From: Escherichia phage nasanit
DNA length: 39,625 bases
Sequence record: PV245933.1
Direction: 5' to 3' (one strand)
Below, piece after piece: positions 4,887-27,198 of the stretch (position 1 is the stretch's first letter; every line of letters begins with the position of its first letter). A model generated the notes under the pieces. That model saw only the letters and a program-made list of their open reading frames with translations, ran no database searches and was not told the DNA's origin. Both the position numbers and the translations under genes were made by a program.

Positions 4887-5004
4887 GTACCACGAAATGA
4901 CGGAACAGTGAGTCACCACACTGAAAGGTGATGCGGTCTAACGAAACCTGACCAAAGACGCTCTTTAACAATCTGGATAATAGCTCTTGAGTGTACCGTA
5001 TAAG

Positions 5005-5050
5005 CGAATAACTCAAGGTCGCACTGAAAGCGTGGCCTTTATGATATTCA
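5005..5050 (+). promoter_or_regulatory. Conserved processing hairpin (RNase III site-like, R0.3 position)
   Basis: ATAACTCAAGGTCGCACTGAAAGCGTGGCCTTTATGATATTCA. Confidence 0.45.
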
Positions 5051-5079
5051 CTTAACGAACTAACATGAGGTAACACCTA

Positions 5080-5538
5080 ATGATTTTCACTAAAGAGCCT
5101 GCTAATGTCTTCTATGTACTGGTGTCAGCTTTCCGTTCCAACCTCGACGATGAGGTGAATATGAGTCGTCACCGCCACATGGTAAGCACTTTACGTGCCG
5201 CACCGGGTCTTTATGGCTCCGTTGAGTCAACCGATTTGACCGGGTGCTATCGTGAGGCAATCGCAAGCGCACCGACTGAGGAAAAAACGGTTCGTGTACG
5301 CTGCAAGGACAAGGCGCAGGCACTCAATGTTGCACGCTTAGCTTGCAATGAGTGGGAGCAAGATTGCGTACTGGTATACAAATCACAGACTCACACGGCT
5401 GGTCTGGTGTACGCTAAAGGAATCGACGGTTACAAGGCTGAACGTCTGCCGGGTAGCTTCCAAGAAGTGCCTAAAGGCGCACCGCTTCAAGGTTGCTTTA
5501 CGATTGATGAGTTCGGTCGCCGCTGGCAAGTACAGTAA
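5080..5538 (+). CDS. 0.3: S-adenosylmethionine-cleaving enzyme (T3 gene 0.3-type SAM hydrolase/lyase), anti-restriction
   Basis: 152 aa starting MIFTKEPANVFYVLVSAF; matches my recollection of T3 gp0.3 (152 aa), not T7 Ocr (117 aa, acidic). Confidence 0.8.
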   Translation: MIFTKEPANVFYVLVSAFRSNLDDEVNMSRHRHMVSTLRAAPGLYGSVESTDLTGCYREAIASAPTEEKTVRVRCKDKAQALNVARLACNEWEQDCVLVYKSQTHTAGLVYAKGIDGYKAERLPGSFQEVPKGAPLQGCFTIDEFGRRWQVQ

Positions 5539-5540
5539 GT

Positions 5541-5585
5541 GATAAACTCAAGGTCGCTCAATATGAGTGGCCTTTCATGATTATC
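5541..5585 (+). promoter_or_regulatory. Conserved processing hairpin (RNase III site-like)
   Basis: GATAAACTCAAGGTCGCTCAATATGAGTGGCCTTTCATGATTATC. Confidence 0.45.
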
Positions 5586-5611
5586 ATTTAACATGCAATA
5601 GGACTAACACC

Positions 5612-5812: not shown

Positions 5813-5859
5813 TGGCGCGATTTGCACGCACTGGACAATAGCCTTTTAGTCTAACCAGT

Positions 5860-5905
5860 GATAAACTCAAGGTCGCTCCTAGCGAGTGGCCTTTCATGAT
5901 TATCA
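5860..5905 (+). promoter_or_regulatory. Conserved processing hairpin (RNase III site-like), near-identical duplicate of 5541-5585
   Basis: GATAAACTCAAGGTCGCTCCTAGCGAGTGGCCTTTCATGATTATC. Confidence 0.45.
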
Positions 5906-5933
5906 CTTTGAAACAACGCACGGGATTAATATC

Positions 5934-6176: not shown

Positions 6177-7274
6177 ATGAACTACACCGACATTCAGGCA
6201 CGTCTGGCAATCATCAAGTCTCTCCCGATTAGTGAACTGGACAAGCGCCAGCCTCTTTTGGTTGCACTGGCTGCTGACATCGTGAACGGTGAAACATGCG
6301 ATGGTGACGATACAAACGGGTCGCAGTGTCTTGAGTATCAGGACTGGTGGAACACCTTGGGCGCTCTCATGCGTGATGCAGGTTTTCGTATGTTGGGTAA
6401 TGGTCATTTTAGTGCGGCCTACTCGCATGAACTGTTACCGGGTCGAGTCGTCAAGGTTGGCTTTAAGAAAGAGGATTCAGGCGCTGCGTACACTGCGTTC
6501 TGTAGGATGCACCAAGGCCGAGCGGGTATCCCTAACGTCTATCACGTAGCACGTCATGCAGGTTGCTATACGGTCGTACTGGACCACTTAAAAAGCTGTG
6601 ACGACGATAATTATGACCATGAGGCATACGCTGACCTCGCACGTTACTTTGTGGAGTCGGATTGCCATGACGCAAGCGACTTTGCACCGGGTGACTACGA
6701 GTTCATCGAGACTTGCAAAATGATTCGTGAGTTCTTCAAAGGGATTGCATCTTTCGACATGCATCGCGGGAACATTATGTTCGACGATAACGATGTTCCG
6801 TACATCACTGACCCGGTTAGTTTCTCACATGACCGTGAACGTGAGGGCGGTTTGCCTCTGGACCCTGAAGAACTGCTGGCTGAGGTCGAGGCTGTAGCGC
6901 AAGAACGCATGATTGAACGTTGCCGCAACCGCAAGGCCAAGTGTGACCCTAACGGCTCCTTTCAGGTTAACCGCAAGGCCGCAATGAAACGCCGCAAGCG
7001 TAACCGTAAGTTACGTGCTAAACATGCAGCGGAAGGAATGCACCAGTTTGTCAAAGGGCGGCTTGAGCGTAGAGCTATTGACCGAAATGAACGCCGTGCT
7101 GAGATGTTTATGGGGTCTGCATGGCATTACGCATGGTTGCATAATGGTAACGCAACGTTCCGCAAGGTTGAACAAGTGAACGGCCTCAAGTGGCAACTAG
7201 GGGACCGCCTAGCAATCCAAGCGGGTCTCCCTTTGAACATCGACAAGTTACTTGACGCACAACTGAAAGGCTGA
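6177..7274 (+). CDS. 0.7: Ser/Thr protein kinase and host transcription shut-off protein, gp0.7
   Basis: 365 aa; N-terminal kinase region with MLGNGHFSAAYSH, KVGFKKEDSGAAYTAFCRM, FDMHRGNIMF; Arg/Lys-rich C-terminal domain as in T7 gp0.7. Confidence 0.9.
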   Translation: MNYTDIQARLAIIKSLPISELDKRQPLLVALAADIVNGETCDGDDTNGSQCLEYQDWWNTLGALMRDAGFRMLGNGHFSAAYSHELLPGRVVKVGFKKEDSGAAYTAFCRMHQGRAGIPNVYHVARHAGCYTVVLDHLKSCDDDNYDHEAYADLARYFVESDCHDASDFAPGDYEFIETCKMIREFFKGIASFDMHRGNIMFDDNDVPYITDPVSFSHDREREGGLPLDPEELLAEVEAVAQERMIERCRNRKAKCDPNGSFQVNRKAAMKRRKRNRKLRAKHAAEGMHQFVKGRLERRAIDRNERRAEMFMGSAWHYAWLHNGNATFRKVEQVNGLKWQLGDRLAIQAGLPLNIDKLLDAQLKG

Positions 7275-7277
7275 TAA

Positions 7278-7322
7278 GGTGTATCTTCAAGGTCGGCACT
7301 GACTGCTGGCCTTTATAGATAA
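7278..7322 (+). promoter_or_regulatory. Conserved processing hairpin (RNase III site-like, R1 position)
   Basis: TCTTCAAGGTCGGCACTGACTGCTGGCCTTTATAGATAAAC. Confidence 0.45.
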
Positions 7323-7347
7323 ACTTTCTTAACAACGTGAGGCAACA

Positions 7348-10006: not shown

Positions 10007-10029
10007 TAATACGACTCACTATTGGGAGA
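10007..10029 (+). promoter_or_regulatory. Phage RNAP promoter (phi1.1A position)
   Basis: TAATACGACTCACTATTGGGAGA. Confidence 0.8.
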
Positions 10030-10655: not shown

Positions 10656-10663
10656 CACTGAAA

Positions 10664-10708
10664 GTTAAACTCAAGGTCATCTACATGGTGGCCTTCATGA
10701 TTAACTGT
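10664..10708 (+). promoter_or_regulatory. Conserved processing hairpin (RNase III site-like, R1.1 position)
   Basis: GTTAAACTCAAGGTCATCTACATGGTGGCCTTCATGATTAAC. Confidence 0.45.
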
Positions 10709-10737
10709 CAACGATACTACCAAGAGGAAATAACATT

Positions 10738-11159: not shown

Positions 11160-11179
11160 TACGACTCACTATTGCGAGA
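11157..11179 (+). promoter_or_regulatory. Phage RNAP promoter (phi1.3 position)
   Basis: TAATACGACTCACTATTGCGAGA, overlapping the 1.2 stop codon. Confidence 0.75.
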
Positions 11180-11180
11180 G

Positions 11181-11222
11181 GTAAACTAAAGGTCATCTAC
11201 ACGGTGGCCTTTGTGATTAACT
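11181..11222 (+). promoter_or_regulatory. Conserved processing hairpin (RNase III site-like, R1.3 position)
   Basis: GTAAACTAAAGGTCATCTACACGGTGGCCTTTGTGATTAAC. Confidence 0.45.
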
Positions 11223-11264
11223 TTTGCTTAAACATTAACCAATACACACTAAAGGAGTTCCATT

Positions 11265-17778: not shown

Positions 17779-18081
17779 ATGGCTATTAAATTCCCCGGTA
17801 ACACTATCCGTCTGTCCGACACCATCGACCAGTATGCTCGTCGGGTGCACATCAACGTCCGTAATGGCAAGGTCACTTTGGTCTACCGCTGGAAGGACCA
17901 TAAGTCCACCAAGGCGCACACACAGCGTGTGACTCTGGATGACACACAGGCAGGTCGTCTGCTGGCTTCCGTTGCTGTAGCCGCTACTGTGGCTGTAGGT
18001 GAAGACAATGTGCGTCAGGTTCTGCTGGGTAAGACCGTGGAGTCTGAGGGCAACATGCTTGCTGACAAGTGTGAAGAGTAA
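17779..18081 (+). CDS. Hypothetical protein, 100 aa
   Basis: Intact ORF with TAGGAG SD. Confidence 0.6.
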   Translation: MAIKFPGNTIRLSDTIDQYARRVHINVRNGKVTLVYRWKDHKSTKAHTQRVTLDDTQAGRLLASVAVAATVAVGEDNVRQVLLGKTVESEGNMLADKCEE

Positions 18082-18082
18082 G

Positions 18083-18127
18083 AGTTAAACTAAAGGTCAT
18101 CTTAACGGGTGGCCTTCGTGATTAACT
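18083..18127 (+). promoter_or_regulatory. Conserved processing hairpin (RNase III site-like, R4.7 position)
   Basis: GAGTTAAACTAAAGGTCATCTTAACGGGTGGCCTTCGTGATTAAC. Confidence 0.45.
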
Positions 18128-18138
18128 TTTGTATGAAA

Positions 18139-21230: not shown

Positions 21231-22141
21231 GCGCAATTACACTGAAGGAGTTCTACGAGTTACGCCAAGGGAAATCCGATAAGGGTGTTCTCGTAATGGA
21301 TGGTGACTGGCTGGTATTCCAAGCGATGGCAGCAAGCGAAGTCGAGACCGATTGGGGTGACGATGTGTGGACCTTAGAGTGTGACCACGGGAAAGCGTGG
21401 AACATTCTGGTTGACTCTATCAAGTCCTATGCGAGTCGTAAGAAGGCTTGGCGTGATGCACCTATCGTACTGGCCTTCACGGACGCTGTGAACTGGCGTA
21501 AGGAACTAGTGGACCCAACCTATAAGGAGAACCGTAAGGCATCCCGTAAGCCTGTAGGATACCGTGCGTTCGTCGAGCGTGTTCAAGCATGTGAGGACTG
21601 GATGTCTATCCTTGAAGACCGACTTGAGGGTGATGACGTAATGGGAATCATTGGGTCTGGTGCTAAACATTTTGGTTTCAAGAAGGCTGTACTGGTCTCC
21701 TGTGATAAGGACTTTAAGACCATCCCTGATTGTGACTTCTTGTGGTGCACGACTGGTAACATCTTGACTCAAGACCAGACTACTGCTGACTACTGGCACA
21801 TCTATCAGACCATTAAAGGTGACTTGACGGATGGTTATGGTGGCATTCCGGGCTGGGGCGAGACTACCGCTGAGTGGCTGGAGAACCCGTATGCCTTTGA
21901 ACAGGTTGAGAAAACTTTCAAGTCTGGTGCCCGTAAGGGACAGACAGTTCTCGAATGGAAAAAGGTTGACATGGGTGAGCGAACCCTATGGGAAGCCATT
22001 GTGACACTTGGTGCAAAAGCTGGGATGACCGAAGAGGAAATCATTAAGCAAGGCCAGATGGCTCGTATACTTCGATTCGAAGAGTACAACTTTATCGACA
22101 AGGAGATTTACCTATGGTCGCCGGAACAGTTGCGTTCGTAA
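21227..22141 (+). CDS. 6: 5'-3' exonuclease, gp6
   Basis: 304 aa from MSAITLKEFYELRQGKSDKGVLVMDGDWLVFQAM; T7 gp6 pattern. Confidence 0.93.
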   Translation: MSAITLKEFYELRQGKSDKGVLVMDGDWLVFQAMAASEVETDWGDDVWTLECDHGKAWNILVDSIKSYASRKKAWRDAPIVLAFTDAVNWRKELVDPTYKENRKASRKPVGYRAFVERVQACEDWMSILEDRLEGDDVMGIIGSGAKHFGFKKAVLVSCDKDFKTIPDCDFLWCTTGNILTQDQTTADYWHIYQTIKGDLTDGYGGIPGWGETTAEWLENPYAFEQVEKTFKSGARKGQTVLEWKKVDMGERTLWEAIVTLGAKAGMTEEEIIKQGQMARILRFEEYNFIDKEIYLWSPEQLRS

Positions 22142-24837: not shown

Positions 24838-24857
24838 TACGACTCACTAATGGGAGA
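24835..24857 (+). promoter_or_regulatory. Phage RNAP promoter (phi9 position)
   Basis: TAATACGACTCACTAATGGGAGA overlapping gene 8 stop. Confidence 0.8.
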
Positions 24858-24913
24858 GACAATACGTCCTCCCTTTGAGTTCAACTTTATGAAATCTAAA
24901 GGAGATAACAATT

Positions 24914-25825
24914 ATGGCTGGTGAATCTAACGCTGACGTATACGCATCTTTTGGTGTGAACTCTGCGGTTGTCGGTGGGTCTACTCCTACTGACCACGAA
25001 CAGGCTATGCTTGAACTCGACGTTGCTGCCCGTGATGGTGATGACGCAATTGAGTTAGTAAGTAACGATGACCCGTATGGTAATCCAGACCCGTTCGGTG
25101 AAGAAGACGAAGACCGCACTGAGATTCGTATCTCCACTGATGGTGAACCTGAAGTAACCGAAGAAGGTGAAATCGACTATGAAGGAACCGAAGATGAAGG
25201 CTCCGAAGAGTTTGAACCAGTTGGTGACGTTCCAGATGAACTGAACGAAGCCTCAAGTCAACTCGAAGAGCACGAAGCTGGTTTCGAAGAGATGGTCAAT
25301 CAGGCTGCTGAACGTGGTCTGTCTGAAGAAACCATCGTGCGTATCCAACAGGAATACGGAGAGGACGGTCTGTCTGAAGAGTCTTACGAAGAGTTAGCCA
25401 AAGCTGGTTACTCCAAGTCGTTTGTTGACTCCTACATCCGTGGTCAGGAAGCACTGGTAGAACAGTATGTTCAGTCCGTTATGGAGTACGCTGGCGGTGG
25501 AGCACAGTTCCAAGCAATCTACAATCACCTCGAAGTGTCCAACCCGGATGCTGCCGAGTCTCTGATTAGTGCCTTGGAGAATCGTGACCTCGCAACAGTT
25601 AAGGCTATCGTTAATCTCGCTGGTGCAAGCCGTGAGAAGACTTTCGGTAAACCTGCTGCCCGTAGCATTTCTAAACGTGCCGTACCTGCTGCACCTGTAC
25701 GAGCCAAACAGTCTGGCTTTGAGTCACAGGCTGAGATGATTGCTGCAATGTCCGACCCTCGCTACCGTTCGGACTCTAAGTTCCGTGCTGAAGTTGAGCG
25801 TAAGATGATGTACAGTAACTTCTAA
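24914..25825 (+). CDS. 9: Capsid assembly (scaffolding) protein, gp9
   Basis: 303 aa, highly acidic, T7 gp9 pattern. Confidence 0.93.
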   Translation: MAGESNADVYASFGVNSAVVGGSTPTDHEQAMLELDVAARDGDDAIELVSNDDPYGNPDPFGEEDEDRTEIRISTDGEPEVTEEGEIDYEGTEDEGSEEFEPVGDVPDELNEASSQLEEHEAGFEEMVNQAAERGLSEETIVRIQQEYGEDGLSEESYEELAKAGYSKSFVDSYIRGQEALVEQYVQSVMEYAGGGAQFQAIYNHLEVSNPDAAESLISALENRDLATVKAIVNLAGASREKTFGKPAARSISKRAVPAAPVRAKQSGFESQAEMIAAMSDPRYRSDSKFRAEVERKMMYSNF

Positions 25826-25828
25826 AAT

Positions 25829-25851
25829 TAATACGACTCACTATTGGGAGA
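25829..25851 (+). promoter_or_regulatory. Phage RNAP promoter (phi10 position), consensus copy
   Basis: TAATACGACTCACTATTGGGAGA. Confidence 0.85.
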
Positions 25852-26020
25852 GAGATGGAATCCCACGATTGGAGGTCACACAGACCATTAAGTTGCTGTG
25901 ACATCTGGCTTCCGGGCTTGTCGTGGGAATGCTCCCTTTGAGTGATACACAATGAGAACCAACTCGTTTCAAGTAGTACCTCACACATTTAAACTTTAAA
26001 TTAACAGAAGGAGATTCAAC
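25852..26020 (+). promoter_or_regulatory. Long structured 5' leader of the major capsid gene, with epsilon-like translational enhancer
   Basis: About 170 nt between transcription start and ATG; nested inverted repeats (CCCACGA/TCGTGGG, GTCACA(CA)G/CTGTGAC, GGGAG/CTCCC); TTTAAACTTTAAATTAACAGAAGGAGA before the ATG. Confidence 0.5.
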
Positions 26021-27064
26021 ATGGCTAAGATGAATGGTGGTCAGCAAATTGGTAAAGACCAAGGTAAAGGTATGTCTGCTGGTGATAAACTGGCTCTGTT
26101 CCTGAAAGTGTTCGGTGGTGAAGTTCTGACAGCGTTTACTCGTACCTCTGTTACCATGAACAAACACCTCGTGCGTTCCATTCAGTCCGGTAAGTCCGCG
26201 CAGTTCCCTGTGCTGGGTCGTACCAAAGCTGCTTACCTGCAACCGGGTGAGAACCTCGATGACAAACGTAAAGACATGAAGCACACTGAGCGTACCATTA
26301 ACATTGATGGTCTGCTGACTGCTGACGTTCTGATTTACGACATCGAAGACGCAATGAACCACTATGACGTGCGCTCCGAGTATACCGCACAGTTGGGTGA
26401 ATCTCTTGCGATGGCTGCTGATGGCGCGGTTCTGGCTGAAATGGCTAAACTGTGTAACCTGCCGTCTGCGTCTGATGAGAACATCGCTGGTCTCGGTAAG
26501 GCTCATGTACTGGAAGTTGGCAAGCAGTCTGAGCTTCGGGGAGACCAAGTTAAGCTGGGTCAGGCTATCATCGCACAGTTAACTCTGGCTCGTGCCAAGC
26601 TGACTGGCAACTATGTTCCGGCTGCTGACCGTGTGTTCTACACCACTCCAGACAACTACTCTGCTATTCTGGCTGCTCTGATGCCTAACGCTGCAAACTA
26701 TCAGGCTCTGATTGACCCGTCTACTGGCTCTATCCGCAACGTTATGGGCTTCGAAGTTATTGAGGTTCCGCATCTGACTGCTGGTGGTGCTGGCGAAGAC
26801 CGTCCAGAAGAGGGTGCAAATCCGACTGGTCAGAAACATGCGTTCCCTGAGACTTCCTCTGGTGACACCCGTGTTGCTCTGGACAACGTTGTCGGTCTGT
26901 TCAATCACCGCTCTGCCGTTGGTACTGTTAAGCTGAAAGATATGGCACTGGAACGTGCTCGTCGAGCTAACTTCCAAGCAGACCAGATTATCGCTAAGTA
27001 CGCTATGGGTCACGGTGGTCTGCGCCCTGAAGCATGTGGTGCGCTGGTTTTCAACAAGTCTTAA
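26021..27064 (+). CDS. 10: Major capsid protein, gp10A
   Basis: 347 aa; T7 gp10A pattern (T7 is 345 aa). Confidence 0.97.
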   Translation: MAKMNGGQQIGKDQGKGMSAGDKLALFLKVFGGEVLTAFTRTSVTMNKHLVRSIQSGKSAQFPVLGRTKAAYLQPGENLDDKRKDMKHTERTINIDGLLTADVLIYDIEDAMNHYDVRSEYTAQLGESLAMAADGAVLAEMAKLCNLPSASDENIAGLGKAHVLEVGKQSELRGDQVKLGQAIIAQLTLARAKLTGNYVPAADRVFYTTPDNYSAILAALMPNAANYQALIDPSTGSIRNVMGFEVIEVPHLTAGGAGEDRPEEGANPTGQKHAFPETSSGDTRVALDNVVGLFNHRSAVGTVKLKDMALERARRANFQADQIIAKYAMGHGGLRPEACGALVFNKS

Positions 27065-27198
27065 CTTCTCGCAAACTCGTAGGGGACACTGAGTCCCTTA
27101 CTGAAGTTGAGCAAGAGCTAACGCCACAACAGAAAGCTGCCCGTACCCGTGCGGCAAACAAGGCTCGAAAGGAAGCTGAGCTAGCTGCTACTGAATGA
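26021..27198 (+). CDS. 10: Minor capsid protein gp10B by -1 ribosomal frameshift near 27046-27052
   Basis: G GTT TTC slippery sequence just before the 10A stop; the -1 frame stays open for 48 further codons to TGA at 27196-27198. Confidence 0.55.

Follow-up and report, generated by a model that had tools for sequence, protein, structure and literature searches.

The capsid-gene leader of Escherichia phage nasanit starts with a covariation-supported RNA domain set in the loop of the phi10 5′ hairpin

T7-like phages express no gene more heavily than gene 10, the capsid gene, and its leader in T7 is among the most used expression elements in biotechnology. A further example of a 5′-terminal stabilizer hairpin is that of the ompA 5′ untranslated region (UTR), and in T4-type phages a promoter-proximal stem-loop, the PeSL promoter-stem-loop cassette, is tied to modular shuffling between related phages. 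The T7 gene 10 stem-loop stabilizes mRNA and raises expression 1.5- to 3-fold (PMC6146998). RNase E scans transcripts from the 5′ end and bypasses orthogonal hairpins, and pseudoknots block it in proportion to their size (PMC9943677); T7 expression is shaped by directional transcript decay, and lower gene 10 expression leads to lower fitness (PMC6938266). Here, we analyzed the capsid-gene leader of Escherichia phage nasanit (PV245933.1; the whole 39,625-nucleotide (nt) stretch is called the window), which runs for 175 nt from the transcription start at G25846 to the capsid ATG at 26021, and found at its start a folded RNA domain of 91 nt that is real and maintained in evolution.

The leader is modular, consisting of a 5′-terminal structured domain made of a clamp and an inserted rod of ~80 nt (module A, 25846–25936, plus strand, as are all leader features below), a conserved hairpin (module B), and an AU-rich initiation region. 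The T7 phi10 stem-loop of pET-type leaders is the closest described system: it also starts at the +1 of phi10 transcription, ahead of the capsid gene, and its GGGAGA start pairs with a pyrimidine run (GGGAGACC-ACAAC-GGUUUCCC), as GGGAG does with CUCCC here. However, the T7 form is a simple hairpin of 20–22 nt with a 5-nt loop, whereas module A has 91 nt, three extra helices, and a probable pseudoknot, and the nasanit leader adds module B and a sequence-conserved core. Module A is an expanded, covariation-supported variant of the known phi10 5′ hairpin that is absent from Rfam and for which no description was found in the literature searched; relative to the small T7 hairpin, it is enlarged and swappable.

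A first-pass annotation of the window had pointed to nested inverted repeats in this leader, and a mechanical search recovered them: TCCCACGA/TCGTGGGA (25861–25868/25921–25928, 100% complementary), GAGGTCACA/TGTGACATC (89% complementary), and GGGAG/CTCCC (25846–25850/25932–25936). The stability of the whole 175-nt leader was unremarkable against shuffled sequences (z = −0.99); the first 91 nt alone had a minimum free energy (MFE) of −34.9 kcal/mol (z = −2.33; 6 of 200 shuffles). Homologues of the insert, for which the annotation had proposed a search in related phages, were found in several subfamilies (window/BA14/PP74, Pila/L025, D226, 5OI88-type, and KP32-type), and were ~74–99% identical to the window in blastn matches. 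RNAalifold, applied to an unbiased MAFFT alignment of the 19 distinct homologues, gave a single irregular rod, P1-P2-P2b-P3, of 26 base pairs (bp), 13 of which showed compensatory double changes; the single-sequence MFE of the 91 nt was the same structure. Standard pairs formed in 98.0% of alignment cells (33–54% in slid controls), the covariation score was 0.473 (0.03–0.15 in slid controls), and neither the paired fraction nor the covariation score observed was reached by any of 500 shuffles. Covariation across relatives, which had likewise been named as a check on the fold, is the decisive evidence that module A is more than chance. In addition, a covariance model of the insert (R1) found a single copy in the window (92.9 bits); the insert occurs once per genome.

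The four helices differ in how they are maintained. The 5′ clamp P1 (the terminal GGGAG/CUCCC) was kept in all 19 homologues, and the pairing probability of nt 1–5 was 0.9 when the first 120 nt were folded and 0.95 for the leader as a whole. P2 (UCCCACGAU at 25861–25869 with GUCGUGGGA at 25920–25928) carried compensatory double changes in 7 of 9 pairs, reading CCCACGA/UCGUGGG, UCUACAG/CUGUAGA, or CCAUGA/UCAUGG in different subfamilies, and the P3 hairpin (25879–25900; CACAG 25879–25883 with CUGUG 25896–25900, apical loop 25884–25895), wholly different in sequence between subfamilies, was double-changed in 4 of 6 pairs. P2b (UGGAGGUC at 25870–25877 with GGCUUCCG at 25907–25914) was paired in 100% of cells and forms a sequence-conserved core with three invariant G·U wobbles, its pair A28–U66 changing to C–G and to U·G among homologues. 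A sequence-variable 3′-side bulge of 5 nt (GGCUU, 25915–25919) separates P2b from P2. Mean pairwise identity among five subfamily representatives was 0.80–0.89 in P2b (0.86–0.88), both pseudoknot strands, the GAA junction, and the 3′ junction with its P1 strand, and 0.39–0.46 in P2 and P3. This contrast indicates that selection acts on the shape of P2 and P3 and on the sequence of P2b and the pseudoknot core. The invariant U·G and G·U pairs would become A·C mismatches on the opposite strand, and the structure is therefore specific to the plus-strand RNA.

The multi-stem fold first proposed for the repeats survived in its outer stem and in CCCACGA/TCGTGGG; its GTCACA(CA)G/CTGTGAC extension and the small GCUUCCGGGC hairpin are displaced by the UGGAGGUC/GGCUUCCG helix. 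The corresponding three-way junction (GUCACA(CA)G/CUGUGAC plus a GCU-UCCG-GGC hairpin) was rejected: only 81.6% of its cells were paired, it had no specific double changes, two of its pairs were broken in 13–14 of the 19 sequences, and it left the A28–U66 to C–G to U·G series unexplained.

Beyond the rod, GAUG in the 5′ internal loop (25854–25857) probably forms a pseudoknot, a candidate for the H type, with CAUC in the 3′ bulge between P3 and P2b (25902–25905). All four pairs were kept in 19 of 19 homologues and the letters were invariant in 17; Pila and L025 within the alignment, and L319 outside it, read GACU/AGUC instead, a change of two adjacent compensatory pairs. Slid controls were paired in 15–42% of cells. 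This pairing also explains the conserved “ATG” contained in GAUG, from which an open reading frame (ORF) of 28 codons extends through module A (25855–25941). A translated leader peptide would account for AUG-GAA in 17 of the 19 distinct sequences with GGAG upstream. However, the ATG is CTG in Pila, L025, and L319, where the pairing partner compensates at the RNA level, the D226 frame stops after three codons, the frame shifts between window-type and KP32-type sequences, and just 2–4 nt separate the Shine–Dalgarno (SD) motif from AUG. We consider such a peptide extremely unlikely and judge that the ORF is not a gene: its ATG is lost exactly where the pairing partner changes, neither start nor frame is conserved, and module A is non-coding. 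Several GenBank records place “hypothetical protein” coding sequences across the leader (L002 and L003, both 1016–1147 on the minus strand; L084, 338–475, L106, 232–369, and L110, 351–467, on the plus strand). Since none is conserved among the homologues, these are probably annotation artefacts, genes put over an RNA structure.

We then compared the site between phages. Close relatives (L004, L007, L069, and others) have as module A a 22-nt hairpin (GGGAGAGAC-AUUAC-GUUCUCCC; the L004-type short loop is GACAUUACGUU), and in nasanit ~80 nt occupy the place of its 5-nt loop. Unrelated inserts sit at the same site in the L009, L010, L015, L018, L029, and L082 types, T3, and K11; no homology between the window insert and those of T3, K11, L009, L010, L018, and L082 was detected by model R1 with filters off. 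Among Berlinvirus-like phages with 87–99.7% identical flanks, the site takes at least six states (short loop, window-type, and the L009, L010, L015, and L082 types). L004, which has the short hairpin only, was 97.2% identical to the window over the upstream 600 nt, 97.7% over module B and the initiation region, and 99.7% over 900 nt of the capsid gene; the values for PP74, which has the insert, were 88.0%, 97.6%, and 85.4%, and those for the T7-like phage L025, which has a Pila-type insert with module B, 63.7%, 88.2%, and 73.2%. The flank comparison of these three phages revealed no linked gene that moves with the insert, which fits a self-sufficient cis element. A Pila-type element was also present in a second T7-like phage, L319. 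The insertion polymorphism and the T7-like carriers together indicate that phages can do without the insert and exchange it horizontally as one unit. Both L025 and L319, which come from IMG/VR, have the T7-type promoter TATAGGGAGA ahead of the Pila-type module A and module B, and L025 has a T7-like gene 9 end and ribosome-binding site; by sequence, the leader of these two phages reads as a clear recombinant.

The first-pass annotation had also considered a remnant of an inserted element. The insertion part of that idea stood, as ~80 nt are inserted in the loop of a 22-nt hairpin, and the part implying a decaying remnant did not, as compensatory changes maintain the fold. A host or plasmid origin was also considered, and blastn gave the insert no match among 5,426 E. 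coli genomes or in PLSDB. Short-query blastn cannot bridge the subfamilies of the element. A pattern scan of viral sequences added only L319, and a loose-pattern scan of metagenomes gave at least two true elements (L149 and L212) among the matches listed. These comparisons suggest a hypervariable, cassette-like clamp loop, for which no description was found in the literature searched. The PeSL cassettes of T4-type phages differ from it in phage group and promoter type and have no sequence relation to it; moreover, their hairpins flank the variable part, whereas here the variable part lies inside the hairpin loop.

Such variability could mean that the insert is a passenger without a function of its own in a tolerant, recombination-prone clamp loop, where any compact insert is accepted and the fold is kept since misfolding would open the clamp or expose nuclease sites. 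The six or more states at one site, the dispensability seen in L004, and the lack of homologues in E. coli genomes, plasmids, or Rfam agree with this explanation. We nevertheless regard it as unlikely, because P2b and the pseudoknot strands stayed near-invariant while P2 and P3 turned over, which “any compact fold” fails to predict, and because two genera have kept the element and T7-like phages have acquired it anew.

Conversely, the insert may be an autonomous functional RNA on the most abundant late transcript, such as a riboregulator, a self-cleaving ribozyme, or a decoy or anti-defense RNA, with the clamp loop serving as a cassette site. A specific tertiary fold is marked by just such a conserved core next to variable helices and a probable pseudoknot, the element is accessory and horizontally mobile, and alternative structured inserts share the site, one of them with a tRNA T-arm-like GGUUCGAGUCC. 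Against these points, there was no Rfam match at E ≤ 10, ribozymes and riboswitches included, no tRNA, no expression platform (neither a terminator nor conserved pairing with the ribosome-binding region), and no co-transferred gene. In its broader form, in which the clamp loop is a cassette site for alternative structured non-coding RNAs and the one in the window is a pseudoknotted RNA with a sequence-specific function, present at very high copy through being carried on the capsid transcript, the idea is doubtful, and as stated for an autonomous RNA it is slightly more doubtful still; the function could be factor or ligand binding, self-cleavage, or acting as a decoy against a host nuclease or defense system. 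The Berlinvirus-like phage L009 has a different 60-nt insert in its phi10 clamp (~1354–1413) with a tRNA T-arm-like GAAGGUUCGAGUCCUUC, in which neither ARAGORN nor Rfam found anything.

We tentatively favor a further reading, with a probability of about 45%, in which module A acts in cis to sequester the 5′ end and to block RNase E. In this model, the first 91 nt of the phi10 transcript would fold autonomously and protect the capsid mRNA in cis. P1 and the GAUG/CAUC pseudoknot (the latter at nt 9–12) would tie down nt 1–12, leaving almost no free 5′ nucleotides for RppH or the 5′ sensor of RNase E, and the rod with the pseudoknot would present a large discontinuity that blocks RNase E on its scan toward gene 10 and the AU-rich ribosome-binding region. 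An obstacle of this kind would explain why KP32-type phages keep both despite having a GGG/CCC clamp. We infer the pseudoknot, the stabilizing effect, and the nucleases involved. In likeness to RNase E scanning obstacles, module A is structured, belongs to a 5′ UTR, and lies upstream of a ribosome-binding region that is AU-rich and single-stranded; a paired 5′ terminus and a pseudoknot, here a putative one, are two features that slow 5′-end-dependent decay in experiments (PMC9943677). Unlike module A, the described examples are host or engineered ones.

The distribution of the clamp is consistent with this stabilizer model. A paired 5′ GGGAG was common to nearly all of ~15 unrelated insert types, enclosing 18–94 nt and usually with P ≥ 0.9, and T7-type, Berlin-type, T3, and K11 leaders have an equivalent clamp. 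It recurs at other strong promoters of the nasanit genome (+1 at 10024, 13527, 24852, and 37645); the phi9 clamp hairpin among them (24852–24873, GGGAGAGACAAUACGUCCUCCC) is near-identical to the short phi10 hairpin of relatives. Among the roles first suggested for the leader structure, that of a stabilizing 5′ structure has thus become the best-supported option, by analogy with the T7 gene 10 version, which stabilizes mRNA (PMC6146998), and given a clamp that is near-universal in phi10 leaders.

Several results weigh against this model. The near-identical phage L004 manages with the 22-nt hairpin only, so any benefit of the insert would be modest or conditional. In equilibrium folding of longer transcripts, the rod had a probability of 0.04–0.55. 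The clamp of KP32- and 5OI88-type leaders is just GGG/CCC and weakly predicted (P 0.2–0.5), and clamp closure alone therefore cannot explain the conservation. Support for the pseudoknot is suggestive and comes from one evolutionary event in one lineage, for which templated quasi-palindrome correction may be a non-selective cause of the GACU/AGUC change; furthermore, with a 3-nt linker (25858–25860), the candidate pseudoknot needs a sharp bend at the 25915–25919 bulge. Finally, the sequence conservation of P2b suggests recognition by a factor outside the stabilizer model. RNase III is the obvious candidate partner, because P2b shares GGUCA/UGGC with the upper stem of phage RNase III processing sites (R-sites).

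This resemblance raises the alternative that module A is a divergent site for RNase III, or for another double-stranded RNA nuclease, with the rod of P2, 3′ bulge, and P2b plus P3 cut in or near 25915–25919; the cut would separate the gene 9 message from that of gene 10 in read-through transcripts, or remove the 5′ domain. A promoter followed by a processing hairpin is standard in these phages (T3 R1.1 and R1.3; window promoters 10633 and 11157), and T7/T3 R-sites (R0.3, R1.1, and R1.3) likewise lie right after a promoter and have two helices, of roughly 9–10 bp each, with a 3′-side unpaired segment. The rod, with ~23 bp in two or three stacked helices and a 3′-side bulge, follows their plan of lower stem, internal loop, and upper stem: P2 (9 bp), the GGCUU bulge, and P2b (8–9 bp) are analogous to it, and the bulge may sit, by analogy only, where the internal loop of a T7-type R-site sits. 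P2b is conserved in a sequence-specific manner, and its GGUCA/UGGCU, including the U·G wobble, resembles the invariant GGUC.../...GGCC upper stem of 12 aligned R-sites, the segment GGUCA/UGGC(C/U) with a U·G wobble being present in both. However, R-sites have 40–58 nt against 91 nt here, module A lacks their AAGGUC...UGGCCUU and their UAAAC/GAUUA lower stem as well as the 5′-side loop, the spacing between bulge and shared motif is off by 2 bp, in a different register, and two bulges of 5–6 nt interrupt the helix.

A covariance model built on those 12 R-sites (R2; seven window hairpins and five curated T3 sites), the internal loop of this family being asymmetric, recovered its seven training sites and one additional site (508) in the window at 31–73 bits. 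With filters off and E ≤ 10, it gave no match at 25846–26020 or in the phi10 leaders of BA14, Pila, D226, KP32, K11, and T3, and no canonical RNase III site in the extra leader modules of K11 and KP32. The initial impression that the structure is not a copy of the conserved processing-hairpin family therefore holds. In the T3 stretches examined, the curated record has RNase III sites marked at other places and none in the phi10 leader, although the T3 insert differs from this one; the BA14 record annotates no RNase III sites in the stretches examined, and their absence at its phi10 leader is uninformative. On balance, we see RNase III processing as a rather unlikely explanation and retain the stabilizer model as the preferred one. 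Elsewhere in the window, the eight canonical RNase III hairpins (AAGGUC...UGGCCUU upper stem) are located at 508–561, 4998–5055, 5533–5591, 5852–5910, 7272–7329, 10656–10711, 11172–11227, and 18076–18132; the covariance model found none beyond 18132, so none in the capsid-to-tail gene region.

A translational switch was also weighed, in which an open rod would let the 3′ half of module A (25920–25940) pair with the SD and AUG of gene 10 and repress the synthesis of capsid protein. In window-type phages only, 17 of 21 positions between 25920–25940 and 26005–26025 were complementary, the pairing appeared in the MFE once 45 nt of coding sequence were included, and the duplex had z values of −2 to −2.8. 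It was absent in Pila, L025, D226, 5OI88-type, and KP32-type sequences (z −1.3 to +0.9), and the ribosome-binding region of KP32-type phages lies 80–170 nt further away; moreover, the rod, a local fold worth −35 kcal/mol, is the first to form as transcription proceeds. We therefore consider the switch very unlikely and rejected it as a conserved function, because the complementarity is confined to window-type sequences; the translational regulator that had been proposed thus found no conserved support. Known element types were also sought: Rfam covariance models gave no match in the leader (E ≤ 10) or in seven other leader variants (E ≤ 1), ARAGORN predicted no tRNA genes at 25700–26100, no terminator-like sites occurred at 25600–26200 (only UUU follows P1), and the leader contained no sigma-70 promoter.

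Downstream of module A, module B (25939–25983) is a conserved two-stem hairpin whose inner stem pairs AAUGAG (25951–25956) with CUCGUU (25963–25968) around the loop AACCAA (25957–25962). A search with a 145-nt query matched 602 phage records, most of which aligned only to query positions 87–145 (window 25932–25990), and 78 of which covered at least 80% of the query. Module B is common to Berlinvirus, T3-like, K11/KP32-like, and other lineages, and T7 is without it. Its inner stem was 100% paired in 17 variants, with three pairs double-changed (slid controls, 21–48%), and its loop is UAUCAC in K11/KP32; its stability alone was not significant (z = −1.1). The AU-rich translation initiation region follows (25988–26023; UUUAAACUUUAAAUUAAC, with the SD sequence AAGGAG at 26008–26013). 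Inspected by eye, it looks like the T7 gene 10 leader in its 3′ part (UUAACUUUAAGAAGGAGA), and the nasanit region is mostly unpaired in the leader MFE.

The leader is transcribed from phi10, a promoter for the phage RNA polymerase (RNAP) at 25829–25851 (−17 to +6) that lies just downstream of the end of the scaffold gene, gene 9 (25825). The sequence TAATACGACTCACTATT at 25829–25845 is a copy without mismatch of the phage’s own promoter consensus, which occurs 10 times in the window against 0 expected, and the curated BA14 record annotates phi10 at the equivalent position. The first-pass annotation had placed about 170 nt between the promoter start and the capsid ATG, close to the 175 nt found here, and had called this unusually long. 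That is true against T7 (63 nt) and not against the relatives, among which the premise of an exceptional leader was wrong: 60 distinct GGGAGA-type phi10 leaders from IMG/VR and GenBank span 58–260 nt, with 63–68 nt in the T7 clade, 106–114 nt in Berlin, Kvp1, and FE44-like phages, 141 nt in T3 (curated record), 174–178 nt in the window type, 210 nt in K11 (curated record), and up to 260 nt in the KP32 type. T7 is the short outlier among phi10 leaders. KP32- and K11-type leaders (e.g., L085, ~430–545; L104, ~1560–1660) reach their 210–260 nt through additional GC-rich modules, one or two in number, that follow module B ahead of the ribosome-binding site. By sequence, the window can be assigned to the BA14-like Berlinviruses of the T7 supergroup, the 215 nt around the element being 97.7–99.5% identical to PZJ0206, S523, BSP161, and BA14. 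The window is apparently a complete genome, and a circular permutation of ~4.1 kb sets it apart from the BA14 record (phi10 lies at 25829 in the window and at 21740 in that record). At 27034–27198, a short ORF runs over the capsid gene’s end; its counterpart in the BA14 annotation is the gp10B frameshift tail.

At this variable site, the well-known 20-nt hairpin is thus the smallest form. In BA14-type coliphages and in many Klebsiella phages of the KP32 type (a group that phage-therapy work makes use of), the site is filled by a 90-nt domain that covariation supports and that is probably pseudoknotted. Should module A stabilize mRNA, T7-RNAP expression systems would have in it a portable 5′ insulator of natural origin. 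If the stabilizer model is true, the idea of obstacles to RNase E scanning could furthermore be tested on module A in a real virus.

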